A program made the position numbers and the translations under genes. A stretch of 64,000 nucleotides of DNA from an uncultured virus (IMG/VR IMGVR_UViG_3300021400_000318) (taxonomy: Duplodnaviria; Heunggongvirae; Uroviricota; Caudoviricetes): the IMG/VR virus record IMGVR_UViG_3300021400_000318. One strand, written 5' to 3'. The notes under the pieces are model-generated. The model was not told where the DNA came from, did not search any database, and saw only the letters and a list, made by a program, of their open reading frames with translations. Below, one piece after another: positions 10,699 to 53,608 of this stretch (within the stretch, counting starts at the first letter, position 1; the number at the start of each line of letters is the position of its first letter).

Positions 10699-10804
10699 CA
10701 TTGTGCAATCACTAATAACAGTGCAAATGTACGGAATTTCCGTTGTTGTACCAAATTGAGAGCACAAAGTAGTCTATTTATTAACGTTTTTAACACTAAG
10801 AGCA

Positions 10805-11017
10805 ATGAAAAAGTCAATGAAAGAGTTGTGGCTTCTCTGGAAAAAGTCAGTCGCTTGGGACGAGAAAACCTTGAAGCAGAAGTTGATTAGTGCATGGTTT
10901 AGCCTGTCGTTCCCACTTGTGGCCATCGTAGGCGGATCATGGTTAGCAGTTATCGCCATCGTGAACCTTGTTGTTGCTGCGTATTTCACTGTCAAGTATG
11001 TACCAGTTAGCGAGTAA
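10805..11017 (+). CDS. small membrane protein
   Basis: Two hydrophobic segments; AGAGCAATG start motif. Confidence 0.6.
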   Translation: MKKSMKELWLLWKKSVAWDEKTLKQKLISAWFSLSFPLVAIVGGSWLAVIAIVNLVVAAYFTVKYVPVSE

Positions 11018-11029
11018 GGAGGACAGATT

Positions 11030-11851
11030 ATGAAAAATGAAAATGTAAAGTTGTTCAAGCAGTTCCTCGTTCATCGTGGTCTTGACACGTTATTCAAAGG
11101 TTTGTACAGACAGTACCGCTTTGACAAGAACCCAGAGGACTTCGACCAGTACCTGGAGCAGGTAGATTCCTACTTCGTCATCGAGGAAGCGTTTGACTTC
11201 AACAAGATTAAGGCATCATCTTCATTTGACGGAGGCTATTGGGCGCAACTCTCCAAGCGTTGGCGCAAGTACATGAAGAAGCAGGCAGAGCACGGCTACT
11301 ACAGGGATGAGATTATTATCCCGAGAAGGCCTGTCATGAACGCAGACGGAAGCGTTCACGTATCACCGACTGCACCTTCACCCCACACGTCAGAGCCAGA
11401 GCGTACAGAACCAGAGATTGAGTATGACTGGTCTGGTATGAACCTTATCCCACTGAAGGCTACCGGTAAGCGTCAGATGGACCCACCAACAGCCCACCAG
11501 ATAAGGGTGTGCACTACCAGTGGCAACACTGTTGTTCTGAGCACGTATCTCTCATCGCCTCTCGTAGAGAACGGATTGATGACTATGGAAATGCAGGTTG
11601 ACCGAGACACCAACAGAATGGTGTTCGTGTTCGGCACCAGTTCACAGTACGCAGTCCGTCAGTACAGCAGTAACCTGTACTCTGTCGCTCACAAGTCCAT
11701 CATTGAATACCTCCAGAAGTATGTCAAGACCAAGTTCGACCCCAAGAAGGTGTACTACATCAGCACAGGTGACACCATCTGGAACAAGGATAAGACGAAG
11801 TGCGCTGTCGTTATCACCAACAAAGTAATTGAGAAGGAGAGATGTTTATGA
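11030..11851 (+). CDS. hypothetical protein
   Basis: 273-aa ORF with phage-like codon use. Confidence 0.6.
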   Translation: MKNENVKLFKQFLVHRGLDTLFKGLYRQYRFDKNPEDFDQYLEQVDSYFVIEEAFDFNKIKASSSFDGGYWAQLSKRWRKYMKKQAEHGYYRDEIIIPRRPVMNADGSVHVSPTAPSPHTSEPERTEPEIEYDWSGMNLIPLKATGKRQMDPPTAHQIRVCTTSGNTVVLSTYLSSPLVENGLMTMEMQVDRDTNRMVFVFGTSSQYAVRQYSSNLYSVAHKSIIEYLQKYVKTKFDPKKVYYISTGDTIWNKDKTKCAVVITNKVIEKERCL

Positions 11852-12072
11852 GTAATACCGCATTATCCAAGAAAGTCATTCTCATTGATGTCATGCTGAA
11901 TGGTTCTTTCGTCTGCCAAGTACAGATGCCTCATTGTGCTCTCTTTCCTGTCACCGACAGAGAGATACGCCAGTATGTTATTAATAAACGTCCGAGCCTA
12001 AAGGGTAAGGCTTTTAAGATTGCGCTCTCGAAAGCCGCCCCACTCTTGAAGCAGGACACAAACGTAGGATGA
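11842..12072 (+). CDS. hypothetical protein
   Basis: 76-aa ORF coupled to neighbours. Confidence 0.5.
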   Translation: MFMSNTALSKKVILIDVMLNGSFVCQVQMPHCALFPVTDREIRQYVINKRPSLKGKAFKIALSKAAPLLKQDTNVG

Positions 12073-12075
12073 GCT

Positions 12076-12480
12076 ATGACTATCACTATTTTCGCTTTGT
12101 TCGTAGCATACACCCTGTGTTGTATTGCTGATGGCCCAGACGTAAAGCCAATTATCAAAAGACGTCTGAGTAAGTATCTTGAGGTGCAGGCAAATCGCCT
12201 GCATCCCATCCAGTACGTCCATCCTGTTGTGAGGCAGCCTCGTGACAGTCGTCTGGAAAATGTCGTTAAATTCGGAGAGGATGAGGTATTGAGTACAATG
12301 AGACGCAAGCACTGCTCTCCAGAAATGGCTGTAAGGATAATTACTGAGGATAGCAAAAGTTATCTGGCAAAATCCATTGCAAAGGCTCTGCTCGATGGAG
12401 GGTTCGTTGAGTTCAAGACTGACAGGGATTTTACAGGTGCATTTTATGTTAGGGCTATTTACTACGCTGCAAAATATTGA
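12076..12480 (+). CDS. hypothetical protein, N-terminal hydrophobic
   Basis: 134-aa ORF in operon. Confidence 0.5.
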   Translation: MTITIFALFVAYTLCCIADGPDVKPIIKRRLSKYLEVQANRLHPIQYVHPVVRQPRDSRLENVVKFGEDEVLSTMRRKHCSPEMAVRIITEDSKSYLAKSIAKALLDGGFVEFKTDRDFTGAFYVRAIYYAAKY

Positions 12481-12484
12481 GACT

Positions 12485-12958
12485 ATGAGAAAGTTATATC
12501 AGTTCTTGTTTAAGATGTTTGTATCTCAGATATTCATCTGGAAGTTCTACACCATCAAGGAGTTCTTTCAGAGAGGTGGATATACCTTCACTCTCAAGCC
12601 TGGCTGTCAAGATGGCACGAATCTTTGGAACTATTGCAAGTACCTGTCCTATGAGGCTTTCGTAAAAGACTGGCCATATAACCACTGGCTTCGTGGTCAG
12701 TATTCAGAATATGTTATCTATGGAGTAAAGGCAGAGTACGAAAGTGTTCCAGAGCATGGATTTGTCTGCAGGATTCCAAAGAATGTTCCGAACTATCCGA
12801 ATGCCGCACTGGCAATAATAGTTAGCGGAATCGTCATCGTTGCCTGTTCTTTGTTCTGTCTGTCCGCTATAGTAGGATTCACCTTCATAGGTGCTGTAGT
12901 AACTTGCATTGGTGCCCTGCTGTATCGCCAGAGTATTCGTTCACCAAAAGAAAAGTAG
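12485..12958 (+). CDS. hypothetical membrane protein
   Basis: C-terminal TM pair; start at in-frame ATG 12485. Confidence 0.5.
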   Translation: MRKLYQFLFKMFVSQIFIWKFYTIKEFFQRGGYTFTLKPGCQDGTNLWNYCKYLSYEAFVKDWPYNHWLRGQYSEYVIYGVKAEYESVPEHGFVCRIPKNVPNYPNAALAIIVSGIVIVACSLFCLSAIVGFTFIGAVVTCIGALLYRQSIRSPKEK

Positions 12959-12963
12959 TAAGT

Positions 12964-13206
12964 ATGGCAGACCTGTTTGATAAAGACCCTGCATTTGTCT
13001 ACAGAGACAAGAAGGGTCGCTTCGCTACTCCAGAGAAAGCAATGGCAGACAAAGCCATCGAGGAAAACAAGATGCTACGTCTGCAGGTCGAGAAGTTCAG
13101 ACGTGCCTACCTTGCAGCCGCCGGTATGTCCTCGAAATACCATCGAGAGTTGGTGGAACTCAAAGATAGGGTCAAGAATCTACTGAAGGAAGGAGGTGCA
13201 GTATGA
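12964..13206 (+). CDS. hypothetical coiled-coil protein
   Basis: RDKKGRFAT motif followed by a coiled coil. Confidence 0.5.
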   Translation: MADLFDKDPAFVYRDKKGRFATPEKAMADKAIEENKMLRLQVEKFRRAYLAAAGMSSKYHRELVELKDRVKNLLKEGGAV

Positions 13207-14787: not shown

Positions 14788-14815
14788 ATAATCTAAGATT
14801 ATTTTACTACCTTTG
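14788..14815 (+). promoter_or_regulatory. lysis/lysogeny switch operator and lytic promoter
   Basis: Palindrome ataatct-a-agattat (14788-14802) abutting tacctttg (14808-14815) between divergent HTH genes. Confidence 0.65.
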
Positions 14816-14863
14816 CACCATCATTATTTATATAACAATGCAAAAGTACAAAAAGTTATTTGA

Positions 14864-15642: not shown

Positions 15643-15675
15643 TTTTATGTTCAACATTTTAAAGCACTAAGAGCA

Positions 15676-16620
15676 ATGGGATTGATTAAGAAAAGTAACG
15701 AAATCGCTATTCAGCGTAATGTGAAGATGATGGTTTACGGACAGGCAGGTATGGGTAAGACCACCCTCGCACTGTCAGCTCCGAAACCGCTGTTGCTTGA
15801 CTTCGATAACGGTGTCAAGCGTGTGAATAACTCTCACCTCGGAGAGGTCGGAATCGTCCAGATTACCAACTGGCAGGAGGTAGTAACCCTTCTGACTACG
15901 GAGAAAGCGGATCTGGCTCCGTTCGAGACCATCGTGGTTGACACCATCGGCAAGATGATGGACTTCATCATCGCCTACCGATGCGGAGGACGTAACCCAA
16001 GAGTACAGGATTGGGGTATGATTAACTCTGACTTCAAGTGGTTTGTTAACGCCCTGTCGGAACTCGGTAAGCACCTTATCTTCGTTGCACATCGAGACAC
16101 ACGTAAGGAAGGTGATGATACCGTATTCGTTCCGGCACTCCGAGAGAAGTCGTACAATGCCATCGTGACGGAACTTGACCTTCTGGGCTATCTGGAAATG
16201 AAGAATGAGAACGGCATCCAGAAGCGTTCCATCACCTTCGACCCTACCAGTCGCAACGATGGCAAGAACACCTGCCAGTTGGATGGTGTCATGTGGATAA
16301 ACAATATCCTCGACAAGAACGGACAGCCGACAGCCCCGAACGACTTCATCCAGAAGCGTATCATTGACAAGTACCAGAACATGATACAGGTCAAGGAGAA
16401 TGCGCAGGCCGAATACAATAAGGCTCTGGCCGAGATTAAGGAGGCAGTGGAGTTGATTACAGATGCACAGGGAGCGAACCACTTCATCGAGCATATCAAT
16501 GACTACAAGAATCTTGGAAACTCCGTCATCCTGTATGCAAGAGACCTGTTCTCTGCCAAGATGAAGAATCTGAAGTTGAAGTACAACAAGGAAACCAAGA
16601 AGTACGAGGATGCAGCCTAA
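15676..16620 (+). CDS. Sak4-like AAA ATPase / ssDNA annealing protein
   Basis: Walker A GQAGMGKT, LLLDFD, IVVDT. Confidence 0.85.
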   Translation: MGLIKKSNEIAIQRNVKMMVYGQAGMGKTTLALSAPKPLLLDFDNGVKRVNNSHLGEVGIVQITNWQEVVTLLTTEKADLAPFETIVVDTIGKMMDFIIAYRCGGRNPRVQDWGMINSDFKWFVNALSELGKHLIFVAHRDTRKEGDDTVFVPALREKSYNAIVTELDLLGYLEMKNENGIQKRSITFDPTSRNDGKNTCQLDGVMWINNILDKNGQPTAPNDFIQKRIIDKYQNMIQVKENAQAEYNKALAEIKEAVELITDAQGANHFIEHINDYKNLGNSVILYARDLFSAKMKNLKLKYNKETKKYEDAA

Positions 16621-20416: not shown

Positions 20417-20470
20417 TCAAGTTCGGTGAGGTGTGGTTTTCCATGCCTCACCTTTCCCACATCAAGAGCA

Positions 20471-21649
20471 ATGAAATATCAGTTAAGAGAATACCAAAGG
20501 GATGCAAGTATAGCGGCTGTCAAGTGCTTCAAGTCCAAGGGCAAAAGGAACGGCTTGCTCGTTCTGCCTACAGGAGCAGGAAAGAGCCTCGTTATAGCAG
20601 ACATCGCATCGAAACTGGATGGTCCCCTGTTGGTGTTCCAACCGTCAAAGGAGATTCTTGAACAGAACTTTGCCAAGTTGCAGAGTTACGGCTGTTGGGA
20701 TGCCGGCATCTATTCAGCGTCAGTAGGCCATAAGGACATCAACCGTATCACCTTCGCCACCATCGGAAGCGTCATGAATCACATGGAGGACTTTGCTCAC
20801 TTCAAGAACGTCATGATAGATGAGTGCCATGGAGTGAACAGCAAGGCTGGCCAGTATAAGGAGTTTCTGGAGGCAGAGGACAGGAAGGTTGTAGGACTGA
20901 CGGCAACACCATACCGCCTCTGTAGTTATATGAGCGGAAGCATGTTGAAGTTCATCACCAGAACGAAGCCACGTATTTTCGATGACGTTTTGTACTACTG
21001 CCAGATTTCAGACCTGTTGGCCAAGGGCTACCTCGCCAACCTGCATTACTATGACCTAACGACATTGAACCTCGACAGGGTACGTTCCAACTCCACAGGA
21101 GCAGACTTCGATGACGAGTCCTTGAAGGAGGAATACATCAGAAGCGGTTTCTATGACAAGTTGACCACTACCACCATCCGAGTATTGAGACCAAAGAGCG
21201 GAATACCCAGAAAGGGAGTGCTAACCTTCACCAGATTCATAGAAGAGGCCGATAGTCTTGTTGGAAAACTGAGGGCTGTAGGTATCAATGCCGATATTGT
21301 CACAGGAGAGACACCGAAGAAGGAGCGTGAATCCATCTTGGAACAGTTCAAGGCAGGAAAAATCAAGGTAGTTGCAAACGTTGGCACCCTCACAACAGGT
21401 TTCGACTATCCAGAACTTGATACTGTCATCCTTGGCCGTCCTACTAAATCCCTCGCTCTCTACTACCAGATGGTAGGCAGAGCCATCCGACCCTGCAAAG
21501 GTAAGGACGGATGGATAATAGACCTCGGAGGCTCATACAGACGATTCGGCAGTGTTGCCGACTTGAAGATAGACCTTGAAGCACCATGCTCTTCAAGATG
21601 GTGCGTGACCTCTCACGGAAAACAACTAACGAACGTATTATTCAGATGA
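20471..21649 (+). CDS. superfamily II DEAD/H helicase
   Basis: LREYQ, PTGAGKS, DECH, GLTATP, QMVGRAIR; start at the AGAGCAATG ATG. Confidence 0.92.
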   Translation: MKYQLREYQRDASIAAVKCFKSKGKRNGLLVLPTGAGKSLVIADIASKLDGPLLVFQPSKEILEQNFAKLQSYGCWDAGIYSASVGHKDINRITFATIGSVMNHMEDFAHFKNVMIDECHGVNSKAGQYKEFLEAEDRKVVGLTATPYRLCSYMSGSMLKFITRTKPRIFDDVLYYCQISDLLAKGYLANLHYYDLTTLNLDRVRSNSTGADFDDESLKEEYIRSGFYDKLTTTTIRVLRPKSGIPRKGVLTFTRFIEEADSLVGKLRAVGINADIVTGETPKKERESILEQFKAGKIKVVANVGTLTTGFDYPELDTVILGRPTKSLALYYQMVGRAIRPCKGKDGWIIDLGGSYRRFGSVADLKIDLEAPCSSRWCVTSHGKQLTNVLFR

Positions 21650-22508: not shown

Positions 22509-22528
22509 ACTTCGTTAAAAATGACGTT

Positions 22529-22695: not shown

Positions 22696-23472
22696 ATGTC
22701 TGAAAGTTGGATAAAGATATACCGAAGATTCCTCGATTGGGAGTGGTACGGCAAATCAGAAATGGTTCATCTGTTTCTACATTTGCTTCTGAAAGCCAAT
22801 GTAGAGGACAAACGATGGCAGGGTATTGTCATCAAGCGTGGCCAACTCATTACAGGGCGTGGCAGTCTTATCGTAGAGACTGGTATATCGGAGAGAACTA
22901 TCCGCACCTGCCTCCAGAAACTACAGGAAACAGGCGAAATAATAGTAGAAGCGTCCAACCGTTTTAGTCTCATAACTATCTGCAATTATGATAGTTATCA
23001 AGAACGAGAAGCCGAAAGCGTCCAGCAAACGTCCAACCAACGTCCGGCCACTGACCAACAAACGTCCACAACTAAAGAAGATATAGATTCTTCTGTCGAA
23101 GAATCAAACAAAACAAATATAACACGCACGAAGAAAACAAAGGCAGATGTGGCAGCTGACACCAAGAAGCGTATGTCAGACTTCTACAACTCCCTCATCC
23201 CTTACGTCCAGATGTACGGAAAGCAGATGGTTCGTGAGTTCTACAACTACTGGAGTGAGACAAACAAATCTGGTAGCAGGATGCGTTGGGAAATGGAAAA
23301 GACGTGGGTTCTTGAAAAGAGGCTACAGTATTGGAGCAGAAACGAAAAATCATATAGCACTAAGAGCAATGAAAATAGTCAGTCAGATAATAGAACAAGG
23401 GAGGAAAGAGATAGAGGTGCATCGGACCTCGTTACCAGACTGCTTGCCGAAAACAAGCCAGTTGGCCAGTAA
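22696..23472 (+). CDS. replication initiator (lambda O/DnaD-like N-terminal wHTH)
   Basis: WIKIYR..LDWEWY, LLLKAN, RGQ.ITGR, ITICNYDSYQ; internal iterons. Confidence 0.85.
   Translation: MSESWIKIYRRFLDWEWYGKSEMVHLFLHLLLKANVEDKRWQGIVIKRGQLITGRGSLIVETGISERTIRTCLQKLQETGEIIVEASNRFSLITICNYDSYQEREAESVQQTSNQRPATDQQTSTTKEDIDSSVEESNKTNITRTKKTKADVAADTKKRMSDFYNSLIPYVQMYGKQMVREFYNYWSETNKSGSRMRWEMEKTWVLEKRLQYWSRNEKSYSTKSNENSQSDNRTREERDRGASDLVTRLLAENKPVGQ
23019..23130 (+). repeat. iteron array and AT-rich tract, probable origin of replication
   Basis: Five 11-bp-period units cgtccagcaaa/cgtccaaccaa/cgtccggccac/tgaccaacaaa/cgtccacaact within the initiator gene. Confidence 0.75.
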
Positions 23473-25641: not shown

Positions 25642-25670
25642 CCAGAGCAAACTTTTAAAATATTAGAGCA

Positions 25671-25922
25671 ATGAAATCGTACAAAGTAACAAGAGAAATT
25701 CAGAAAGAGAACGTGCATCCCGCAAGTGCAGCAGATATGTATATTACCACCGAGAAGGGAACGTTGAAGGAGTTCCAGATAAATGGTGATGCACAGAAAT
25801 ACCTCGCTGACTTACGGAAGAAGGCTTTCCAAAACAGAAAGTTTGTAAAGGTAACAAACAATGGAAAGAATCAGTTCAGAGCCCACACGGCAGAAGGAGT
25901 TTATATCTATTCAGTTAAGTAA
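25671..25922 (+). CDS. hypothetical early protein
   Basis: AGAGCAATG start, first gene after a class I promoter. Confidence 0.65.
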   Translation: MKSYKVTREIQKENVHPASAADMYITTEKGTLKEFQINGDAQKYLADLRKKAFQNRKFVKVTNNGKNQFRAHTAEGVYIYSVK

Positions 25923-25936
25923 TAAAGTTAAGAGCA

Positions 25937-26173
25937 ATGAAATCGGTAAAATGTACTAACTCAGAAAGAAAGACTGTGCGGTTCTGCCTCAACGGACATG
26001 AGACAGATCAGATTATTGTTACTGCCATCCAAGATGGTGAGTACTGGTTCCAAATCGGAATGTATAAGACGCTGAAGAATGCCAAGAAGCAGGCCATCCG
26101 ACAGATGGCACTACAAGGCTACACTCTCGACCAGAAGGAACTTGATGCGTTGACAATAGAAAGTTTACTATAA
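25937..26173 (+). CDS. hypothetical early protein
   Basis: AGAGCAATG start. Confidence 0.65.
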   Translation: MKSVKCTNSERKTVRFCLNGHETDQIIVTAIQDGEYWFQIGMYKTLKNAKKQAIRQMALQGYTLDQKELDALTIESLL

Positions 26174-26185
26174 AGTATCAGAGCA

Positions 26186-26473
26186 ATGGAATTGTATGTA
26201 TTAAGAAACGATGAGTTATGTGGTGTTTGCCACTGCCCTACTTTCGAGAACAAGAATGATGCTGAACGTGAAGCCGCCTTCAAGTGCAGACGGCACAGTG
26301 TCATCGTCATTGACGAAAACCAGATGTATGAGCCTTGCAACCCGAAAAAGCTCACGCCAGATTGTATGGTGTGTGCCAGGTGTGCCACTACTGTTGAGAA
26401 GCGGAAAGCCTACGTGCAGTCGCTTGGATTTGATACAATAGATGCTTACCTAAAGGCCAGAAGGAATGATTAA
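26186..26473 (+). CDS. Cys-rich hypothetical early protein
   Basis: AGAGCAATG start. Confidence 0.6.
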   Translation: MELYVLRNDELCGVCHCPTFENKNDAEREAAFKCRRHSVIVIDENQMYEPCNPKKLTPDCMVCARCATTVEKRKAYVQSLGFDTIDAYLKARRND

Positions 26474-26852
26474 GCCAAGATTCATTTACCTGCAAAGCGA
26501 CTGCGGCCACTACGAGATAAAGGCAAGGCTCGTATCACAGCAGAATGGCTATTCCAACGACTATGGAGGCACGAAGAAGATTTACACCGGTGCAGTTTGG
26601 AACGTTGAGATTATGAAGGACAGACAGAGAGTATCAGACATCAATGGTTTCCACTATGGGAAGTATGGAGAAAAGGCTCTCTGTCAAGGTGGTGTGAAAC
26701 TGAACAAGAACACCATCCTCTTTGGAGCCTCGCTAACAGGACTGTTCACCAGAGCCTTGAAGGAGGTCGATACAGAGAAGATACGAAAGCAATGGCATAA
26801 GGAATATGCCGAAGCAAGGAAGAAAGAATATCAGTATGATTGCAGGAGTTAA
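26466..26852 (+). CDS. hypothetical protein
   Basis: 128-aa coupled ORF. Confidence 0.55.
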   Translation: MIKPRFIYLQSDCGHYEIKARLVSQQNGYSNDYGGTKKIYTGAVWNVEIMKDRQRVSDINGFHYGKYGEKALCQGGVKLNKNTILFGASLTGLFTRALKEVDTEKIRKQWHKEYAEARKKEYQYDCRS

Positions 26853-26882
26853 CCGCCCTGCGTAACTAAATTTATAAGAGCA

Positions 26883-27893
26883 ATGAAATTGTTAAAGTTG
26901 AACATTGGCGATACATTAGTATTCGACCACAGCGATTACACTGATTACGGAATCGTGTATGCAGTAAGTGAAAACGGCCAGAAAGCCCATGCAGCGTTCG
27001 TGGATGATGGCGGTGGTGAAGATTGCCTCTGGCTCATGGAAGTCCAGATTACCAAGAAAGGTATCGAGACATCAGAAGGAGGCTATGACGTTACTCTCGA
27101 CAAAGACCTGCTTGACAGAGCAAAGGAAGGAAGCGATATGGAGTTCCGCCTTGTATCACTCATGAAGGATGCAGCCTCAACTCCAGATTACGTCAGTCTG
27201 TTCCTTGATGACAACATGGACAAGGATGATGAGTTGTCTGTGTTGCATGATGTCATAGATACTTTACGTAATGGCAACGAGAAGTTCCGTGAGGTCTATG
27301 ATTTAATAGCAGATGACTGTGAGTTCAATGTTATTGTAAGTGAGAAACAAAAGGACGCTTTCGCCAAGGACTTGAAGGAACTGGTAACGAAGTATAATGC
27401 CAACTGTCCTGCACTCCGTAAGATGATGCCTGTCACTGAGCGTATCAAGACGTTCGAGGATGCCTGCATTGAAACCAATGTTGACATCAAACTTTTCAAG
27501 AACGATGCCGACGGTTGGGATGCAGACATCGTTGCGTACATGAAGTTACGCATCATAGCAGAAGCTCTCAATGAAGGTTGGAAGCCTCAGTATACGAAAG
27601 AAGAATGCCGTTGGTACCCTTGGTTTACCTTCTGGCCAGAGGAAGAGTTGAAGGAGAAATCAGAGCAATGGAAGAAAGACCATGCGTTGTGGCTCTTTGG
27701 TGGTAGCTCGATCAACGGTGCGTATTGCGGTATCGCTGCTACGTACTCGAACAACGCTGGGTCGTTCTCGAACTCGTACCTCTCGGCTCGCCTTGCTGTC
27801 AAGTCAGAGGAACTGGCAGTCTATTTTGGTAAGCAGTTTATTTCCATTTGGGCTGACTATGTACTGTTTAACCGTAAAGATTCTAAGAAATGA
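26883..27893 (+). CDS. hypothetical protein with C-terminal CLec-like (VR-like) segment
   Basis: RIKTFEDAC, AYMKLRIIAEALNEGW, FGGSS.NGAYCG...SARLA; AGAGCAATG start. Confidence 0.65.
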   Translation: MKLLKLNIGDTLVFDHSDYTDYGIVYAVSENGQKAHAAFVDDGGGEDCLWLMEVQITKKGIETSEGGYDVTLDKDLLDRAKEGSDMEFRLVSLMKDAASTPDYVSLFLDDNMDKDDELSVLHDVIDTLRNGNEKFREVYDLIADDCEFNVIVSEKQKDAFAKDLKELVTKYNANCPALRKMMPVTERIKTFEDACIETNVDIKLFKNDADGWDADIVAYMKLRIIAEALNEGWKPQYTKEECRWYPWFTFWPEEELKEKSEQWKKDHALWLFGGSSINGAYCGIAATYSNNAGSFSNSYLSARLAVKSEELAVYFGKQFISIWADYVLFNRKDSKK

Positions 27894-29567: not shown

Positions 29568-29605
29568 CAACAGCATTTAAGTTAAACCCATAAAAGAAAA
29601 GAGCA

Positions 29606-29989
29606 ATGGATAAGTCAAAAGAAATTGAGATTCTGCAATCACTGAAAGGAGATACCTACTTTCAAGATTTCTTCGGAGCACACGACATCGACCAGATGTG
29701 CGAGAACATCAGAAACGACTTCGGTCTTGAATACTGCTGTCAGTTCTACAAGAAGGCCGCTATCTTCGAGCAGAAAGTTAAGGACGCTGAGAAGAAGGCA
29801 AAGGAGGATAAGCAGAACTTCATCAGAGACATCATTGACGGATTCGATGGTAATGTTCCGATGGAGATTTACGACCGTCTTGAAGCCGAGGTTGGAATCC
29901 TGTTTATCATCAACTGGAAACGAGACCAAGAGTATAAGCTGACTGACAAGGAAATCGACTGGCTGATAACTCTGGCCAACAAGAAGTAA
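29606..29989 (+). CDS. hypothetical early protein
   Basis: AGAGCAATG start. Confidence 0.65.
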   Translation: MDKSKEIEILQSLKGDTYFQDFFGAHDIDQMCENIRNDFGLEYCCQFYKKAAIFEQKVKDAEKKAKEDKQNFIRDIIDGFDGNVPMEIYDRLEAEVGILFIINWKRDQEYKLTDKEIDWLITLANKK

Positions 29990-30036
29990 AGGTAACGGGG
30001 AGGCCAACCACCTCCCCACCCTAAAAGATAAGAGCA

Positions 30037-30288
30037 ATGAAAATCGAAGAAAAGAAAATCAAGGATGGTGCCCGTGAGTACAAGTTTGACAACGGTGCAT
30101 GGGTGAAACTCGACATCGACGGAGAGTACGGTTCTTGGGAGTACCAAGAGGATGATGATGAGGAAACCTACATGGAAGGTGGAATCTGGTTTGACGGCAA
30201 GCATATTGAGGACTACGATGGCTGTTTTGAACTGCCAGAGGAAGTCAAGGTTGCATTGAAGGATTTGGGTTTCACCATGGATGATTGA
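30037..30288 (+). CDS. small acidic early protein
   Basis: AGAGCAATG start; D/E-rich, DYDGCFELP. Confidence 0.65.
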   Translation: MKIEEKKIKDGAREYKFDNGAWVKLDIDGEYGSWEYQEDDDEETYMEGGIWFDGKHIEDYDGCFELPEEVKVALKDLGFTMDD

Positions 30289-39586: not shown

Positions 39587-39623
39587 TTAAGTAAGATTAA
39601 AAAAGTTTTGTAACTTTGCAACC

Positions 39624-39691
39624 GAAATCGTTTCTTTTGACGATTTCATTGCTCTTAGTGCTTCGGTTCGTGACGAATAGGAGCACTTTTT
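39624..39691 (+). ncRNA. putative small RNA antisense to the AGAGCAATG translation-start motif
   Basis: taactttg -7 box at 39611-39618; hairpin gaaatcgt/acgatttc; unpaired attgctctt; terminator agtgcttc...ggagcact-tttt; complementary to at least 18 gene starts. Confidence 0.75.
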
Positions 39692-39709
39692 CTGTTAATA
39701 AGCGTTATT

Positions 39710-40006: not shown

Positions 40007-40047
40007 CCAGAGCAAACAGCAATAAAATAACTTAAAAGTAAAGAGCA

Positions 40048-40290
40048 ATGGAAACGTCAAGAATTAGTTTGAATCAGATTGAGGTTGACACAGCAACCTA
40101 TCGTTGGAACCTCGGTAGAGCACCCAAAGGAAAAGGCCAGTGGTATTTCGCCATCGGTAACAGGAGAGAAGCAATGGATGACATCACGAAAGCGTTTGCC
40201 ACAGGGTATATGTCTTACACGGATGCCGTCAAGGTTGCTAAGAGAGAAGCCCAAAAGAAGGGCGTTACTACCATCTACGTCTTACCGTAA
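40048..40290 (+). CDS. hypothetical early protein
   Basis: AGAGCAATG start; GRAPKGKGQWYF. Confidence 0.65.
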   Translation: METSRISLNQIEVDTATYRWNLGRAPKGKGQWYFAIGNRREAMDDITKAFATGYMSYTDAVKVAKREAQKKGVTTIYVLP

Positions 40291-40496
40291 TGCAGAAAGA
40301 TATGGAAAAATGGTATGAAGTCAAGCAGGCAGGCGTGGTCCCTTGCATGGTCAACCCAGAGGAACTGAAGAAGGATCACGGATGGATGATAGCCCACTGT
40401 TTCAAAGGTAGGCTGATATTCGAGAACTACAGCAGGGCGATGCTCTGTTGGTATGAGAGAAAGGATAATAAGAACTGGCCACTGCCAGAAAACTAA
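40290..40496 (+). CDS. hypothetical protein
   Basis: TAATG coupling. Confidence 0.5.
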   Translation: MQKDMEKWYEVKQAGVVPCMVNPEELKKDHGWMIAHCFKGRLIFENYSRAMLCWYERKDNKNWPLPEN

Positions 40497-40508
40497 AGAA
40501 TAAGAGCA

Positions 40509-40751
40509 ATGAAACTGATAGGAACGTATAAGATACCAGAGTATGCCATCTGTGCCATAGAATATGGTGACAACACCTGCATGACGGCAGAGGATGACAA
40601 GCTGATGAAAGATTTCCTCGAAAGAGAGTTTCCGAATGGATATGTGGTTGACTGGCATACGAACGATCCGCAAGGTGAGCCGTATTTCTCCAGTAACCCT
40701 GCCTTCGGGCTACCAACGACTGTAGTGGATGCAGATTTTTATGAACCCTAA
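40509..40751 (+). CDS. hypothetical early protein
   Basis: AGAGCAATG start; IPEYAICAIEYGD, PYFSSNPAFGL. Confidence 0.65.
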   Translation: MKLIGTYKIPEYAICAIEYGDNTCMTAEDDKLMKDFLEREFPNGYVVDWHTNDPQGEPYFSSNPAFGLPTTVVDADFYEP

Positions 40752-40764
40752 AAGTATAAGAGCA

Positions 40765-41775
40765 ATGAAATCAGAATTAGTAGTAGAGAAGTTTGCTGAC
40801 TTGATAATAGAGCGGATGGAACAGATGAAAGAAACGAAATGGGAGAAAGGTTGGATTGGTACCACGTTTGGAGAAATGCCGATGAACATCAGAGGCAGGG
40901 AGTATAACGGAACGAACGCGTTCCTGCTTTTCCTTCTTGCAAGCATGAAGGACTGGAAGTACCCCCTGTTTGCAACCTTCCACCAGATTAAGGAACTTGG
41001 AGGAAGTATCAACAAGGGGGCAGAATCGTTCCCTGTACTCTACTGGAAGATTGTGTATAAGACAAAGGATGGTGAGAAGATTGATAGTCTCGATGGACTT
41101 TCCAGAGAAGAGAGAAAAGCCTGTACGTACTATCCTGTGTTGAGGTCGTATAACGTATTCAACATCAGTCAGACCAACTTGGAGGAAGTTGCACCGAAGG
41201 TCATAGAGAAGCTGAAGGCCAAGTTCCATATTGAAGAGCCTCCGAAGGACACTCTTGGAATGTATGAGAATGCAGACATTGACGATATGCTGACGTACCA
41301 GAAGTGGCTTTGTCCCATTCACTACCAGAATCCGTCAAATGAAGCCTACTACCGTCCAAGTAAGGATGAGATAGTAGTGCCTATGAAAACGCAGTTCTAC
41401 GATGGCACAAGCGAAGAGAAGAAGTATATCAGCGGAATGCGGTTCTATGATGTCCTTCTGCACGAAATGGCTCACTCAACAGGTCATGACAGCCGTCTGG
41501 CCAGAGGCAAGGGCAATCCTTTTGGCTCTAAGGAGTATGCCAAGGAGGAACTGGTTGCAGAACTCACCGCAGCCATCATCGGCCAGACACTCGGCTTTGA
41601 CCCTAAGATTATGGATAACAACGCATGTTATCTGGATTCGTGGATAAAGACCATGAAGAAAGAACCAAAGTTTATCGTCTCTGTCCTGGCTGATGTCAAC
41701 AAGGCAGCTCAGATGATTCTTGAAGTAGTGAATAATGAACATAAAGTATTAGTAGAAACGGAGGAAGAATCATGA
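40765..41775 (+). CDS. ardC: ArdC-like antirestriction protein (ssDNA-binding + zincin-like domain)
   Basis: W.KGW, Y.G.N, TFHQ....GG...KG, Y.VFN..QT, AYY.P..D.I..P, LHEMAHSTGH, YAKEELVAEL. Confidence 0.85.
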   Translation: MKSELVVEKFADLIIERMEQMKETKWEKGWIGTTFGEMPMNIRGREYNGTNAFLLFLLASMKDWKYPLFATFHQIKELGGSINKGAESFPVLYWKIVYKTKDGEKIDSLDGLSREERKACTYYPVLRSYNVFNISQTNLEEVAPKVIEKLKAKFHIEEPPKDTLGMYENADIDDMLTYQKWLCPIHYQNPSNEAYYRPSKDEIVVPMKTQFYDGTSEEKKYISGMRFYDVLLHEMAHSTGHDSRLARGKGNPFGSKEYAKEELVAELTAAIIGQTLGFDPKIMDNNACYLDSWIKTMKKEPKFIVSVLADVNKAAQMILEVVNNEHKVLVETEEES

Positions 41776-42255: not shown

Positions 42256-42284
42256 CCTGTGCAAACCTATAAAATTAAAGAGCA

Positions 42285-42524
42285 ATGAAAGATAGAAGTC
42301 AAAAGGCGAAGTTCGCTAACAGAATCGCAAGATTCGACAGAAACACCCAACAGGTTGTGGTTGAGTTCAAAGATGGAAGTAGCATGGTAGTAGAAAAGAA
42401 GGATGGTGAATACATTTTCTGTAATGAAGGAAAGTGCATCACAGGCTTCGACAACATCATGCATGCCGCTGAGAAAATGATAGATGATAAGTTAGTATCA
42501 GATATCTACATTGACAGTTTGTAA
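42285..42524 (+). CDS. hypothetical early protein
   Basis: AGAGCAATG start. Confidence 0.6.
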   Translation: MKDRSQKAKFANRIARFDRNTQQVVVEFKDGSSMVVEKKDGEYIFCNEGKCITGFDNIMHAAEKMIDDKLVSDIYIDSL

Positions 42525-42541
42525 CTTAAAAGTAAAGAGCA

Positions 42542-42748
42542 ATGAAATTAGTCGAAATCAAGTTCAAGAAGTTTGGAAAGGAGTACACCAAGAAAGGTGC
42601 TTACATCTATTCCGTCAAGAAGAATGGTCAGCGTTACGCTCATCCTGCATGGTACGAGGCAAGAGGAAACGAGCAGACGCAGGAAGATGTTCTGACCCGC
42701 CTCCAGACGTTGAATCCAAATTCACGTTTTGAGATAGCAGAAAGATAG
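42542..42748 (+). CDS. hypothetical early protein
   Basis: AGAGCAATG start. Confidence 0.6.
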   Translation: MKLVEIKFKKFGKEYTKKGAYIYSVKKNGQRYAHPAWYEARGNEQTQEDVLTRLQTLNPNSRFEIAER

Positions 42749-42771
42749 TTAAACCCCTAAAAGATAGAGCA

Positions 42772-43128
42772 ATGAAATTAGTTACGAAAGAAGTAGAGAA
42801 ACGATTGCAGAAATATCCGCTCTACAGCCAAGACGGCAAGAAGAAGGAAGCAATCTGCGTAGTGAAGTTCTTTATGTGTGGTGTCAACTACACGTGGTAC
42901 GTTCTGGAAGCCGATTTGGAGAATAAGATTCTCTATGGCATCACCATCAACAGCCACGGTGAAGCTGAATACGGCTACACCAGTCTGTCTGAACTTGAAA
43001 CAGTCAAGAACAGTTGGGGGCTTGGAGTGGAGCGAGACCTGTACTTCGAGCCAACGAAGTTGTCAGACATTGACGATGACATCTTGAAGAAGTTCTTGGA
43101 TAACCTTTATTCGGAGGATGCAGCATGA
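42772..43128 (+). CDS. DUF2958-like protein
   Basis: PLYSQD...VKFF...TWYV.E...EYGY.SL.EL...VERDLYF.P. Confidence 0.8.
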   Translation: MKLVTKEVEKRLQKYPLYSQDGKKKEAICVVKFFMCGVNYTWYVLEADLENKILYGITINSHGEAEYGYTSLSELETVKNSWGLGVERDLYFEPTKLSDIDDDILKKFLDNLYSEDAA

Positions 43129-43273
43129 GTAAGATGAAAGATTGTTGCGAGAGTTGCAGGCATTGGAAGAACATGGGCCTCCATTACTATGAATGTACTA
43201 ACAGGTGGAGCCAGAACTATGGCAGAAGCATGAGTAGAGGACAGTCTTGTAACCAGTTTGAAGAGGATTGACT

Positions 43274-43558
43274 ATGGGAAAGAAGTCTGACGAAGGAACG
43301 ATGTTCACCCCTGCATATCTCTACGATAAGGATGGAAAGGAAATAGGAGTGACGAACTACGACAACAAGTCGATTGCCTATGCCATGGCCAACTATCAGT
43401 TGGTAGAATCGGCACAGACATACGATCAGATGTTTGGCAAGGTAACTGTTGAGCGGAAAAGTTTCTCTGCATCAGCACTTGAAAAGGTCAAGGATAAGAG
43501 AAAGTACGGTGAGTGCCTGCTGTTTTGGGTAGGTGCTCCCTTGATTGTTAACAAGTAA
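43274..43558 (+). CDS. hypothetical protein
   Basis: ORF in early island 2. Confidence 0.5.
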   Translation: MGKKSDEGTMFTPAYLYDKDGKEIGVTNYDNKSIAYAMANYQLVESAQTYDQMFGKVTVERKSFSASALEKVKDKRKYGECLLFWVGAPLIVNK

Positions 43559-43833
43559 TCAGAATAAGTTATGAAACAGGTATATGTATTATCGTACAAC
43601 GCAGGTGTATTAGGAGTGTTCTGGTCAAAGGCCAAGGCACTGGCAGAGAAGAGAGACTATATAGATAACGACTACAAGGGTGTTAAGGTTGAAGAATTTT
43701 ATGTTTACTAAGATTATGGCGATGAAATACAAGATAGAGAACGGAAAGCACTTGCAGGCTATTCGTAGTCCTTATGATGGACGTGTAACTGGTTGGATAG
43801 ACATTACCGACAAAAACAATAAGAAATAAGATT

Positions 43834-44211
43834 ATGGCACAGGAAGTAAATATCAGTCAGTCGAACATCAAGATAGAACTGACACATATGATGAAGCAGT
43901 ACTACGATTTTAAGGAGAAGTATCCAGAGGCATTGTTACTCTTCAGATGCGGTGATTTCTACGAAACCTACGAGGAAGATGCTGTAGAAAGTGCAAAGAT
44001 ACTCGGTATCACTCTCACCAAGCGGACTTCTGACAAGACGAAGATGGCAGGATTCCCTCATCACGCCCTCGACACCTATCTGCCGAAACTGATAAGAGCC
44101 GGCAAGAGGGTTGCCATCGTTGACCAGTTGGAAGACCCCAGACTTACCAAGAAGTTAGTGAAAAGAGGAATAACAGAATTAGTAACACCAAATAAAAACA
44201 AAGAGCAATGA
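43834..44211 (+). CDS. stand-alone MutS domain I (mismatch-recognition) protein
   Basis: MMKQY...[21 protein letters not shown]...A.ILGITLT...MAGFP.HALD.YL.KL..G..VAI.DQ. Confidence 0.9.
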
Positions 44212-45747: not shown

Positions 45748-45775
45748 CGACTGTAATTACAAAAATCTTTAAAAG

Positions 45776-47230: not shown

Positions 47231-47276
47231 CAAGTAATGTAAGAGCAATGATATTGTTAAATTAAAACGATTGATT

Positions 47277-48455
47277 ATGAATGTAAAGAACATCATTTCG
47301 ATGGATGAACTGTCGTATGTGTCACGTCAGTCATTCACAGAGAAGATTGCCATCCAAAGACTGGCAACCTATGACACACAGTTACAGCAGAAACGTGACA
47401 ATCTCGCACCTATCTCCGAAGCACAGGCCAAGGAGATTAAGGACTTCTGGAGCAAGAAACTCATGTGGCATGACGGACTTCTAAATATGAAGTATTACGA
47501 TGTCTATAATGCCGTTGAGCAGGACAGGTCAAAGTTGAAGCTGTATATCCCAGACAGTTTCTTTTATGCGTTCATTGATGAGTACTTCACCAATCCACAG
47601 CGCAGTACGGCTCTTGATGACAAGAATATGTATGACATGTACTTCCCGAACGTCAAGCGTCCAAAGACTATTGCACGTAAGGTTGACGATGTGTACTTGA
47701 ATGAGAACTATGAGCCGATTTCTGTCGAGGACTTCATCAAAACCTGCAAGGAGCACAAGGAGGTCATCGTTAAGTCTGCCATCGGATCGTGGGGAGGCCA
47801 CGGTGTGAAGTTCTGGGATGCCGAGAAAGATAGCGTAGAGACACTTCTGAACTATATCTATACCCAGAATGCAGAGTATTTCAGAGGCTCATCAGTGTAT
47901 AAGCAGTACATCGTACAGGAGGTGTTTAAACAGCACAAGGACTTGGCAGACATCAATTCGAGCAGTGTCAACACCATCCGAGTGATGACCCTGTTCCGTA
48001 ATGGCAATGTCAAGGCTCTGTCATCAGTGCTTCGCATGGGTGTTGACGGCAGTCGTGTAGATAACTGCAGTAGCGGTGGAATTGTTTGCGGCATCACAGA
48101 GGATGGGCACTTGAAGGAAGTTGCCTATGATGGAGCGGCCAACCGCTTCTACCGCCATCCGCAGGGTGTCGAGTTCATAGGACGTGTTGTTCCTGCATAC
48201 GCTGAGTGTGTTGCTATGGCAGAGAAATTGGCGTACCGCTTCTATGGAGCCTCACGCCTAATCTCTTGGGATTTCGCTGTTGCGGAAGATGGAACGCCCA
48301 CACTGATTGAAATGAATATCTCGTTTGGTGAGTTGGACTTCCATCAGTTGTGTAACGGACCTATCTTCGGTGATGACACAAAGGACATCATTGATGAAGT
48401 CTTTGACCACAGCCATACTTTAAAGGAAATCATTAAGTTGTACGATAAAGAGTAA
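47277..48455 (+). CDS. sugar-transfer-associated ATP-grasp protein
   Basis: LDDK, P.TI, GGHGV, VQE...QH.....N.SSVNTIRV.T, DN.SSGG, WDFA..EDG.P.LIE.N. Confidence 0.8.
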   Translation: MNVKNIISMDELSYVSRQSFTEKIAIQRLATYDTQLQQKRDNLAPISEAQAKEIKDFWSKKLMWHDGLLNMKYYDVYNAVEQDRSKLKLYIPDSFFYAFIDEYFTNPQRSTALDDKNMYDMYFPNVKRPKTIARKVDDVYLNENYEPISVEDFIKTCKEHKEVIVKSAIGSWGGHGVKFWDAEKDSVETLLNYIYTQNAEYFRGSSVYKQYIVQEVFKQHKDLADINSSSVNTIRVMTLFRNGNVKALSSVLRMGVDGSRVDNCSSGGIVCGITEDGHLKEVAYDGAANRFYRHPQGVEFIGRVVPAYAECVAMAEKLAYRFYGASRLISWDFAVAEDGTPTLIEMNISFGELDFHQLCNGPIFGDDTKDIIDEVFDHSHTLKEIIKLYDKE

Positions 48456-49025: not shown

Positions 49026-49398
49026 ATACCCTGCCATCGCCTATGGCAAACTGACGTTTGAAGAGAGCCGTTACCAGAGAGGTGACAAGTGGTGGTATGC
49101 CTCCACCCTTCTACGTGCCTGCCATGAAGCAGAACTGGAGCCGTTCGAGTACCCTGTTGCCTGCTATGATATGGCAAACAAGTATTTCCCTCTGGATAAT
49201 ATGGATGATTTCGTCTGGCAGATGAAGCGGACGTTGGAAGCAGACTATGAGAACTACCCAATAATATTGGATGATTTAGGCCAGGTTGCCGATGGCAATC
49301 ATCGCATCTGCCATGCCATTCTGGATGGTAAGACAAGCGTTCTCGCCTACAGGCTCCAGACGATGCCAGAACCAGACTTTATAAAGGAAGAAAGTTAA
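49012..49398 (+). CDS. ParB/Srx-like small protein
   Basis: YPIILD..G..ADG.HR..HA. Confidence 0.7.
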   Translation: MKSSKYPAIAYGKLTFEESRYQRGDKWWYASTLLRACHEAELEPFEYPVACYDMANKYFPLDNMDDFVWQMKRTLEADYENYPIILDDLGQVADGNHRICHAILDGKTSVLAYRLQTMPEPDFIKEES

Positions 49399-51803: not shown

Positions 51804-51861
51804 ATAAGTTGAAACTTTTTACTGTCACCAATATGGGTGCCAAGATGGATGCAGAAGGCCA

Positions 51862-52030
51862 TTTTGACACCCATTAACTTTGTTGAGGCTCAGTTAAGTT
51901 AACGAACCGTTAAATTCTTCTCCTAAAGTTCTATAAAAGTTTATAATATTACCCCCTTTATACTTATCCACAAGCAAGAAAATAAGGCCACCTTGCGGAT
52001 TTCGCAAAAACGTACAAAATTCTGTCAAAA
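51862..52030 (+). repeat. dispersed intergenic repeat A, copy 4
   Basis: Shares 24- and 25-bp identical blocks with copies 1 and 3; contains TTATCCACA at 51964-51972. Confidence 0.85.
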
Positions 52031-52096
52031 ATTAGGAATCTGACGTAAAAAGTACAAACGTTAAACATTTGTAACGTGCTGAAAATAAATGATTTT

Positions 52097-52131
52097 TCGT
52101 TTTGATATTCAGAAATAAAGCGGTAACTTTG
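52097..52131 (+). promoter_or_regulatory. class I promoter
   Basis: tcgttttgatattcagaaa...taactttg. Confidence 0.8.
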
Positions 52132-52172
52132 CCAGAGCAAACAGCAATAAAATAACTTAAAAGAATTGAGCA

Positions 52173-52505
52173 ATGAAATCGTACAGTATTTATCAGATTA
52201 AGGATGATGCCACCATTGCAAGGTACATCAAGTTTATGGGCCTCGACTTCTTGAAGGATAATAACCTTTGCGAGGTTGACGGTGATTTATGCAAACTCGA
52301 CAGCGACATGTACGAGAAAGTCTATGAAGGCACCATCGCATTAGGGCAGGATGATGAAGATACACTGAACTTAATCTACAGAATGTTCCAAGGAAGGAAG
52401 CCTGTCGCATACAAGGGAACCTCGCTGTCAGTATCAGACGTGGTAGTTCTGGACGGAACAGCATATTATGTGGATGACTATGGATTTGAGAAGATTGACT
52501 TTTAA
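52173..52505 (+). CDS. YodL-like protein
   Basis: Y.IYQ, Y..VYEG, L..IY..F....P..Y.G.SLSVSDVV.L...AYYVD.YGF. Confidence 0.85.
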   Translation: MKSYSIYQIKDDATIARYIKFMGLDFLKDNNLCEVDGDLCKLDSDMYEKVYEGTIALGQDDEDTLNLIYRMFQGRKPVAYKGTSLSVSDVVVLDGTAYYVDDYGFEKIDF

Positions 52506-52516
52506 ATAGAAACGAT

Positions 52517-52822
52517 ATGAGTTACAGTCAGAAGAAAGTGCTTGACTATTACAAGCAGACCAAGGGACAGTTTTGTGTCTATGCGTTCAACCAAGACACG
52601 AAGTTAAGAGAATCGGCATACGTAAGACTGAACTGCCTTGATGCCTTGCAGGAAATGATGAGCAAGGCACAGGCAGGATTCCTTGTGCTCGCTCTTGATA
52701 TAAAAGGAAGCACTATAGCAGATGTCTGGGAGTTGAAGAATAATGCTCGCATCAGTTATGACCTCTGCAGGCAGTGGGCTGTTAAGACCTACGTGATGTC
52801 AAACGCTATATCTAAGATTTAA
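52517..52822 (+). CDS. hypothetical protein
   Basis: ORF in early island 3. Confidence 0.5.
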   Translation: MSYSQKKVLDYYKQTKGQFCVYAFNQDTKLRESAYVRLNCLDALQEMMSKAQAGFLVLALDIKGSTIADVWELKNNARISYDLCRQWAVKTYVMSNAISKI

Positions 52823-52834
52823 GGAGAAGCTATT

Positions 52835-53092
52835 ATGAAAGAGAAGAAAGTTTATACGCTCGTAAAGACAAGGACGTTCCTGTATAACCGTCCAGATCAG
52901 GTTCGCAACGTAGAAGGTACTCTGGATGAACTGACAGAGTATTTCAGTTACACCCTCTCCACAGGCCATGAATACGATTCCAAGGTGAATAAGAACCCAA
53001 AGACGATAAGGTCTCTGATTAAGTCAGTCAACAGAGGCTATGAGGCAATGGGTATGTTCTGTTACGTAGAGTTAGCGGAGAAGCAAGATTAA
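52835..53092 (+). CDS. hypothetical protein
   Basis: GTLDELT.YFSYTL..G...NKNPKTI.SL. Confidence 0.6.
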   Translation: MKEKKVYTLVKTRTFLYNRPDQVRNVEGTLDELTEYFSYTLSTGHEYDSKVNKNPKTIRSLIKSVNRGYEAMGMFCYVELAEKQD

Positions 53093-53110
53093 CCATCAAT
53101 ATTAAGAGCA

Positions 53111-53608
53111 ATGAAAGAAGTCTTTTTTAACGATTTAGGCAATCTGTCAGAAAGAGATTGCAAGGCCATCCGAAATATTATGGATGGTGTGAGTTACTAC
53201 AAGTTTGATGTAAGCTGGTCGAACGTCAATGGCAACTGCCGGCTGATTGTCAATACTGACTATCCGAAGGCCACTGACGAAGAGGTTAAGAACATGTTCA
53301 TGCACGTCCTTTCCTGTAAGGCTGCAGGACTGGCACACCAGAAGAAGATTCTGGAAGAGTTTGCCACTCTCCATTATCAGCATCCAGAAGGTGTGGTTAT
53401 GTACGAATGGTGCAATCGCCTGTTTTTCTACTTTGGTGACAGAGACAAGGCGCAGCAGGTTCTTGACCATCCAGAGTGTGGTATCTGTATCACCTGTACG
53501 GAGCCAGACAACTGGCCAGTGGCCTCCATCCCAGTAGCAGGTATGCAGGAAGCCCTAACGAAATTCAGAGAGAAGGAAGTAGAAGTGTATTACGTAAGAT
53601 TATATTGA
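53111..53608 (+). CDS. hypothetical early protein
   Basis: AGAGCAATG start. Confidence 0.6.
   Translation: MKEVFFNDLGNLSERDCKAIRNIMDGVSYYKFDVSWSNVNGNCRLIVNTDYPKATDEEVKNMFMHVLSCKAAGLAHQKKILEEFATLHYQHPEGVVMYEWCNRLFFYFGDRDKAQQVLDHPECGICITCTEPDNWPVASIPVAGMQEALTKFREKEVEVYYVRLY

Follow-up and report, generated by a model that had tools for sequence, protein, structure and literature searches.

The window analysed here is a stretch of 64,000 nucleotides from an uncultured virus (IMG/VR record IMGVR_UViG_3300021400_000318), a temperate Bacteroidales phage with a diversity-generating retroelement (DGR), lysis genes, an integrase gene at 9014-10264 on the minus strand, replication genes, and genes for terminase, portal, capsid and tail. 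It represents a phage family of gut and rumen Bacteroidales. The terL relatives of this phage sit in Prevotella, Bacteroides and Parabacteroides genomes, and no close named phage was found in the annotated phage set, where the top terL match reached 29.9%. Many of its non-structural genes begin with the same 9-mer, AGAGCAATG, which ends in the start codon and is here called the tag. A reversed copy of the tag lies in a predicted small RNA gene behind terL (RNA-1), and a second structured element, RNA-2, forms the leader of the head operon. In this paper, we describe the tag and both elements and consider what they may do together.

The tag and the genes that carry it

The tag is present in 23 copies in the window, 21 on the plus strand and 2 on the minus strand, against 0.94 ± 0.86 expected from 100 dinucleotide shuffles, the maximum in any shuffle being 3. 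The sequence-only reading from which the analysis started had expected fewer than one copy of a given 9-mer per strand in 64 kb. All 18 of the AGAGCAATG starts that it had listed, together with a variant, GAGCAATG, at 52173, were recovered at their positions, and each starts an open reading frame (ORF); these 19 sites start non-structural genes, with ORFs spanning 68-392 amino acids. Three plus-strand copies are additional to that list, with their ATG at 27668, 47248 and 61818. The first (27662..27670; net pairing -6.7) is out of frame within the gene that starts at 26883 and opens a 12-amino-acid ORF, the last (61812..61820; net pairing -6.9) is out of frame within the tape-measure gene, and both probably arose by chance. 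The copy at 47248 starts a 5-amino-acid upstream ORF (uORF; 47242..47265, net pairing -18.8) before an ATP-grasp gene behind the portal gene, where 3 of 8 orthologues have AGAGTA-ATG. The two minus-strand copies lie at 39647-39655, in the seed of RNA-1, and at 10385-10393, where a 12-amino-acid uORF precedes the integrase gene.

All 19 tagged starts are on the plus strand. The first (10799..10807; duplex -34.9) opens a 70-amino-acid gene at the head of the rightward early operon and is tagged in 3/3 orthologues. It is followed by the genes for a Sak4-like annealing protein (AAA_24; 15670..15678), which has the longest match to RNA-1, for a DNA helicase (ResIII; 20465..20473) and for a DUF6633 protein (23363..23371), the last beginning within the 3' end of a DnaD-like gene and tagged in 7/9 orthologues. 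The other tags form five clusters, each behind a promoter of one class (class I): four in a small-gene cluster at 25665..26885 (ATG 25671, 25937, 26186 and 26883; promoter at 25634), two at 29600..30039 (ATG 29606 and 30037; promoter at 29560), three at 40042..40767 (ATG 40048, 40509 for DUF6926 and 40765 for an ArdC-like anti-restriction protein; promoter at 39999), four at 42279..44210 (ATG 42285, 42542, 42772 for DUF2958 and 44208 for DUF3560; promoter at 42248) and two at 52168..53113 (GAGCAATG at 52173 for a YodL-like protein and ATG 53111; promoter at 52124). The remaining tagged products are small unknown ORFs. Among 36 relatives the tag is retained at 12/15 Sak4, 12/15 helicase and 13/18 DUF3560 orthologues. 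A repeat of 150-250 nucleotides precedes three of the class I promoters, with a further copy that ends at the stop of the integrase gene (8849-9021, 25391-25640, 39756-40005 and 51860-52130); it contains TTAA-rich blocks and TTATCCAC, which we take to resemble a DnaA box, and showed nothing unusual when folded as single-stranded DNA (z=-1.0).

It had been claimed that the tag marks early genes and never structural ones. None of the DGR, lysis, terminase, portal, capsid and tail starts of the window, which fall among the 60 other starts listed, is tagged, and in the same relatives AGCA or GAGTA ends at the start of no capsid (0/34), MuF (0/33) or tape-measure (0/33) orthologue and of one portal (1/33) and one terL (1/34) orthologue. 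The word never is too strong, however, as 5/32 orthologues of a gene labelled putative scaffold from its position before the capsid gene open with A/CAAGCA-ATG, and as the tagged uORF mentioned above lies behind the portal gene. The tagged genes are non-structural, and their functions suggest that they are early. Within the non-structural blocks 19/54 genes are tagged, and a gap of at least 12 nucleotides to the preceding stop was found for 12/14 tagged and 7/33 untagged genes (P=6e-5; gaps above 300 nucleotides excluded, some untagged starts being rough calls). The tag therefore chiefly marks genes with a leader of their own and mostly skips genes that abut the preceding stop.

The register of the tag on the start codon is exact and the similarity extends beyond it. 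Positions +4 to +6 match AAA in 79, 95 and 89% of tagged starts and in 48, 50 and 50% of other starts, in line with the codon bias reported earlier, and +7 is T in 53% against 10%. Position -3 is G in 19/19 tagged starts, and their leaders are A-rich, with A at -6, -12 and -13. Two of the three start calls that had been corrected from the tag, 20471 and 40765, are supported because the ResIII and ArdC-N domains of Pfam begin at residues 2 and 7 of the respective products. The partial copies reported at the beginning of three class I leaders do exist, CCAGAGCAAAC occurring three times, but they begin only 1 base past the -7 promoter box and may be only partly transcribed.

Lysogen genomes confine the tag almost wholly to the prophage, with 16/16, 12/13 and 10/13 of the AAGAGCAATGAA matches inside it in the three richest of 20 genomes; hence the tag is specific to the phage and is not a host signal. 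Neither does it resemble a Shine-Dalgarno sequence, whose consensus is complementary to the 3' tail of the 16S rRNA at a usual spacing. The canonical tail CACCTCCTT is found in related hosts (3/5 genomes matched), and AGAGCA agrees with the complement of this related-host tail at three positions out of six at the most. Ribosomes of Bacteroidetes are described in the pertinent part of PMC7797042 as initiating without Shine-Dalgarno pairing and with a preference for A at -3, a preference from which the tag departs because it has G there. The tag is best read as a docking site for RNA and not as an initiation signal.

RNA-1 behind terL and the head-operon leader

The sequence-only reading had noted that the tag is complementary to an RNA at 39.6 kb, and the seed found there, CATTGCTCT (39647..39655, plus strand), is indeed its reverse complement. 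This reversed copy lies 60 nucleotides past the terL stop within RNA-1, a candidate antisense RNA of about 70 nucleotides (39624..39692, plus strand). A -7 promoter box, TAACTTTG (39611..39618), lies 25 nucleotides past the terL stop, the Bacteroidetes consensus for such boxes being that given in the promoter description of PMC7366714. From its 5' end the RNA is predicted to comprise a hairpin of 9 base pairs (39624-39647), a single-stranded seed region (39648-39656; AUUGCUCUU), a terminator with a GUGA loop (39657-39687) and a U run. The fold has z=-5.1 and was equalled by 0/200 shuffles.

From 160 terL loci, 43 distinct RNA-1 candidates were collected, of which one was re-anchored and five were dropped (one false, two decayed, and two seed variants that were retained for tests), giving 39 aligned sequences with the window. 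The promoter box follows a strict TAnnTTTG in 36/39, the 5' hairpin is present in 37/39 and the 3' hairpin in 38/39, and the seed is unpaired (above 0.7) in 38/39. The core ATTGCTC is invariant in 39/39, in sequences that were themselves chosen by this seed. In the terminator stem, 8/9 pairs show two-sided changes (97 cells against 32.7 when shuffled, with the structure derived from the same alignment), while the 5' hairpin, too variable to align, was assessed by folding each sequence. One relative (L009) has a gene inserted between terL and RNA-1 with promoter and RNA intact, which argues that RNA-1 is a separate gene and not the tail of terL. By its sequence features RNA-1 is therefore a stand-alone gene, equipped with a separate promoter and terminator, and it exposes a seed complementary to start regions encoded elsewhere.

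Neither RNA-1 nor RNA-2 has an Rfam match at gathering score, and the weak E-value matches (BTnc049, rli60, SCARNA7 and RgsA) are far under their cut-offs. A model of RNA-1 (R1) matched 30 of 151 genomes of one family; most of these loci look like ordinary terminators and only the known locus showed seed and hairpin, so that we claim no host or wider family. Pattern scans returned 80 loci under loose and 13 under stricter settings, 70/93 of them adjoining terL and most of the others being chance matches. A displaced RNA-1 was sought in four genomes (G012, G021, G022 and G030) and was not found there, apart from a weak look-alike with no seed. On a short contig whose gene starts are out of view (L080), a unit that resembles RNA-1 but has another seed, TTCATATTATCTT, lies 33 nucleotides past terL.

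RNA-2 (54441..54557, plus strand) consists of a promoter box (54441-54448), a structured leader and a terminator, and lies before the putative scaffold gene. Its loop reads CATTGCTC in most relatives and has decayed to CTTTGCTCA (54499-54507) in the window, where RNA-1 is present. It folds into three helices, the last of which is the terminator, with 98.5% of cells paired and two-sided changes at 7/19 pairs. Among 97 distinct terL loci of at least 15 kb, both elements carry seeds in 13, the leader only in 7 and RNA-1 only in 11, with another 9 in which RNA-1 carries the seed and the leader is out of view; three genomes (G012, G022 and G030) have no RNA-1 and keep both their tags and an intact leader loop. 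One relative with both seed-bearing elements (L015) also encodes a c4-2 RNA at 17701-17776 (Rfam RF02944, above gathering score). RNA-2 was also tried as a gene on the reverse strand and rejected, as the frames differ among relatives. The simplest interpretation of RNA-2 is that it is another terminated antisense RNA.

The leader also has structural features of an attenuator, and it might be thought that the elements form an RNA-RNA switch for the late genes with T-box-like logic, with the tagged early mRNAs as ligand and the leader as sensor; early starts pairing with the loop would then shift the attenuator, and RNA-1 would be a sponge that sets the threshold. Besides the conserved terminator, there is a likewise conserved alternative helix of 6 pairs between the first hairpin and the top of the terminator, to which it could be opposed (88% of cells paired, 17 two-sided cells against 7.1 shuffled), which reaches a probability of at least 0.4 in 16/24 leaders when transcripts are cut before the 3' strand of the terminator. 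The loop follows the tag in a genome whose RNA-1 is broken (G033), and scaffold starts often end in CAATG. We nevertheless regard such a switch as unlikely, since the terminator forms (probability at least 0.78) in all 24 full leaders, since keeping the loop unpaired has no uniform effect, the alternative helix becoming less probable in 7 of the 16 leaders and staying the same or gaining in 9, and since the loop seed is decayed in the window and absent from at least 11 loci in which RNA-1 and tags persist.

On the minus strand, a tagged 12-amino-acid uORF (10349..10395; net pairing -13.3) lies between the integrase gene and the 3' part of a tRNA-Ser(GGA) (10425..10481), the likely attP core; a whole tRNA-Ser(GGA) occupies that place in 4/5 related integrase loci. 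The site can pair with RNA-1 at two places, the seed and the 5' arm, and similar sites occur in 4/10 related leaders. Because the uORFs are 2, 3 and 12 codons long, it appears that the pairing site has been kept rather than the peptide. In a lysogen, where this stretch follows the tRNA-Ser gene of the host, RNA-1 could silence integrase mRNA made by read-through. A compensatory change of length between integrase site and RNA in two genomes (G027 and G032, whose integrases lie on contigs other than those of their RNAs) was considered and not retained, being visible in register and supported by energy in one of the two.

Joint change of tags and RNAs and the case for antisense control

Several lines of evidence connect the tag to RNA-1. 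When structure is taken into account, the predicted binding of RNA-1 is -10.2 to -21.0 kcal/mol at the 19 tagged starts and -1.1 to -10.2 kcal/mol at the 60 other starts, a comparison that is partly circular because the tag had been used to choose the sites. Of the 97 terL loci, 38/40 with an antisense element contain at least two tagged starts, against 1/57 of those with none, although these 57 are mostly more distant phages, so that the association is confounded by kinship. Another line concerns the flanks of the tag (-10..-5 and +4..+12), examined at 193 unique AGCA-ATG starts from 27 genomes with 17 RNA types; the set excludes the genome with the broken RNA (G033) and any genome that has no RNA-1 or offers fewer than 4 sites. 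The flanks fit the RNA of their own phage better than those of other phages (0/100000 permutations), both upstream (P=0.0002) and downstream (P=0.0008), whereas 819 untagged starts used as a control show no such fit (P=0.30). When same-strand sites alone were used and the genomes were pooled into clades by terL identity, 17, 12, 8 and 7 clades gave P=2e-5, 4e-5, 0.002 and 0.003.

Changes in the seed itself point the same way. In one genome (G002) the seed is CATTGCTTTT and 4/4 starts read AAGCA-ATG; in G033, where the leader loop is CATTGCTAC, 5/8 starts read TAGCA-ATG. In phages whose seeds predict T at -7, that base is present in 5/7, 4/6, 5/7 and 4/8 starts, and elsewhere the position is mostly A.

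These data also bear on readings in which the RNAs play a lesser part. Were the tag a translation enhancer or the binding site of a phage or host protein, with the antisense RNAs secondary or acting positively, its exact register on ATG would be expected, as would the AGCA core kept where RNA-1 is broken (G033), and the A-rich leaders would fit the initiation rules of Bacteroidetes as set out in the relevant part of PMC7797042. We hold this to be very unlikely: the invariant G stands at -3 where A is favoured, the highly needed virion genes are untagged, and neither the match of the flanks to the RNA variant of each phage nor the co-occurrence of tag and antisense gene is explained. The tag might otherwise act as DNA: a phage repressor could use it as operator or stoperator, or small-gene cassettes could be shuffled by crossover at it, and the reversed copies would be by-products. 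The phage does encode helix-turn-helix (HTH) proteins, and tagged genes do occur in variable clusters of small genes that have long repeats in common upstream. Yet the site is non-palindromic, fixed on ATG and oriented with the gene, conserved single-copy genes (Sak4 and the helicase) are tagged too, and the reversed copies lie in exposed parts of promoter-terminator units with covarying stems, all of which makes a DNA site barely credible.

The tag-and-mirror system is real, conserved and covarying, and is best read as a form of phage antisense control. We consider it likely, with some confidence, that RNA-1 is one antisense repressor with many targets, namely the early and anti-defence genes that the phage has itself tagged, and that this one RNA probably switches them off together. 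On this view the phage has given the starts of its own independently translated non-structural genes a docking site, the tag. RNA-1 would be transcribed behind terL from a host-type promoter of its own and would pair first through the exposed UUGCUCUU, nucleating on AGAGCAA, after which the duplex would extend over the AUG and the first codons and open the 5' hairpin. An RNA paired across the start codon generally prevents initiation, according to the account of such pairing in PMC7366714, and ribosome loading could thus be blocked at about 19 genes at once; genes coupled to the stop codons of tagged ones would be silenced along with them. We infer that anti-defence, recombination and replication genes would fire on entry, before RNA-1 accumulates, and that the tagged genes and the integrase mRNA read through from the host tRNA-Ser gene would be kept off afterwards or in the lysogen. 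A second copy of the seed, in the leader of the head operon, may substitute for RNA-1.

Several observations weigh against this interpretation, in addition to the circularity and the kinship noted with the figures above. Covariation fails in 4/17 RNA types (G031, rank 14/17; G027, 15; G032, 12; G034, 12), and the leader loop of G002 (CATTGCTC) departs from the AAGCA starts of that genome. The CAU that faces AUG sits in a hairpin stem and needs opening. In the integrase leader, the site is missing in 5/10 related leaders and partial in one, and at one of four sites (L316) the pairing is no stronger with the phage's own RNA than with a swapped one (-33.5 against -34.3). The assembled contigs of three RNA runs leave the bin of RNA-1 uncovered, a result from contigs only that is uninformative either way.

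The remainder of the window holds other features of note. A second promoter class, with AAAAGTATTTGTTTTTCAAA upstream of the -7 box, occurs at 22518-22575, 32624-32681, 45699-45756 and 54400-54457, before the DnaD-like, UDP-galactopyranose mutase, portal and scaffold genes, and its activator may be the product of a LuxR-type HTH gene at 15091. The regions 10678-10731 and 14808-14861 are related promoter regions with -7 boxes overlapping on both strands and are likely to be divergent switch regions. A separate tag for late genes, GTACAATG, was tried and found unsupported, with 4 copies and no mirror. The DGR has variable and template repeats (3920-4013 and 4550-4643, 87% alike) beside a reverse transcriptase gene (4811-5956). 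The MuF-type minor head protein (49398-51497) matches a Bxa ADP-ribosyltransferase family and has a papain-fold deamidase domain at its C terminus; next to it comes a small gene that is served by a separate promoter (51537). Genes for the modification of sugars or peptides surround the terminase and portal genes (32670-37695 and 47280-48455) and encode UDP-galactopyranose mutase, GNAT, ParB-like, two ATP-grasp proteins and a glycosyltransferase, while a tRNA-Lys(TTT) lies amid the tail genes (59408-59481).

Comparison with known systems

No report of a phage RNA that mirrors a start tag on many of the phage's own genes was found in the literature searched, subscription papers and supplements being outside its scope. 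The nearest phage RNAs by function are the c4 RNA of P1/P7 and the CI RNA of P4, trans-acting antisense RNAs of temperate phages that are similar in size to RNA-1 and repress lytic-side genes of their own phage. They are processed from the operon that they control and act at sites in one leader. RNA-1, in contrast, lies behind terL between a promoter and a terminator of its own, would act on many dispersed targets, and is not processed from a leader; nor did the C4 and c4-2 covariance models of Rfam match RNA-1 or RNA-2. For the c4 RNA of P1/P7, we refer to its description in PMC8546580.

Master regulators of early phage genes are known mostly as proteins, and the system described here is seemingly the RNA equivalent of an operator-repressor regulon. 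The Aca repressors of anti-CRISPR operons, T4 RegA and the L5 stoperators are alike to it in that one regulator shuts an early or anti-defence set after the burst on entry; they differ in that the regulators are proteins, whereas here an RNA would read the tag by base pairing. The stoperators of L5 are treated in a section of PMC3203893. A tag of this kind may also serve as a marker for early and anti-defence genes among unknown ORFs.

Within Bacteroidales, the closest parallel is GibS of Bacteroides thetaiotaomicron, a trans-encoded small RNA that pairs over the start codons of its targets in a genus with no obvious Hfq or ProQ, according to the account of GibS in PMC7366714. GibS is encoded by the host, has two or three named targets and uses a long unstructured seed, whereas RNA-1 is encoded by a phage, about 19 genes of which share one evolved tag, and holds its seed between two hairpins. 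In a host group that uses neither Shine-Dalgarno pairing nor Hfq, the arrangement would offer a model from nature for a programmable switch that turns translation off.

The tag itself is most reminiscent of the start-associated sequence (SAS) of Cluster K mycobacteriophages, an asymmetric repeat private to the phage with 11-19 copies at non-structural starts and rare in the host, which has a single copy in the opposite direction and whose role is given as unknown in the SAS passages of PMC3203893 and PMC11373665. Confinement to non-structural starts, rarity in the host and a reversed copy are shared, there being two reversed copies here, one of which is the integrase uORF. SAS is 13 bp long (GGGATAGGAGCCC), contains a Shine-Dalgarno core and lies 3-9 bp upstream of the start, as described in part of PMC3203893; the window tag, in contrast, has AGAGCA fused to the ATG in a host group with no Shine-Dalgarno pairing, shares no sequence with SAS and does not fit GGGATAGGAGCCC. 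A further difference is that those same passages of PMC3203893 and PMC11373665 name no antisense RNA for SAS.

The reversed SAS of phage Anaya (L325, JF704106, 59870-59882) is intergenic and lies in a predicted hairpin loop on the gene strand, in a region that matches 180 phage records. Such an anti-SAS hairpin loop, with an unpaired probability of 0.97-0.99, is predicted in 4/6 Cluster K phages examined (L325, L455, L458 and L459) and the pattern is absent in 2. On these predicted folds, the reversed SAS is a candidate antisense RNA for the SAS genes, and Cluster K SAS may work in a manner similar to the tag. A more comprehensive reading would have timing set by RNA alone, the tag defining the regulon, RNA-1 silencing it, the head-operon leader sensing tagged mRNAs and the same logic explaining SAS. 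This combination strikes us as rather doubtful; were it true, mRNA start regions would act as ligands of an attenuator that sets read-through into the capsid genes. The comparison with SAS has the advantage that Cluster K mycobacteriophages grow on a laboratory host, which makes the function of the SAS repeat testable.

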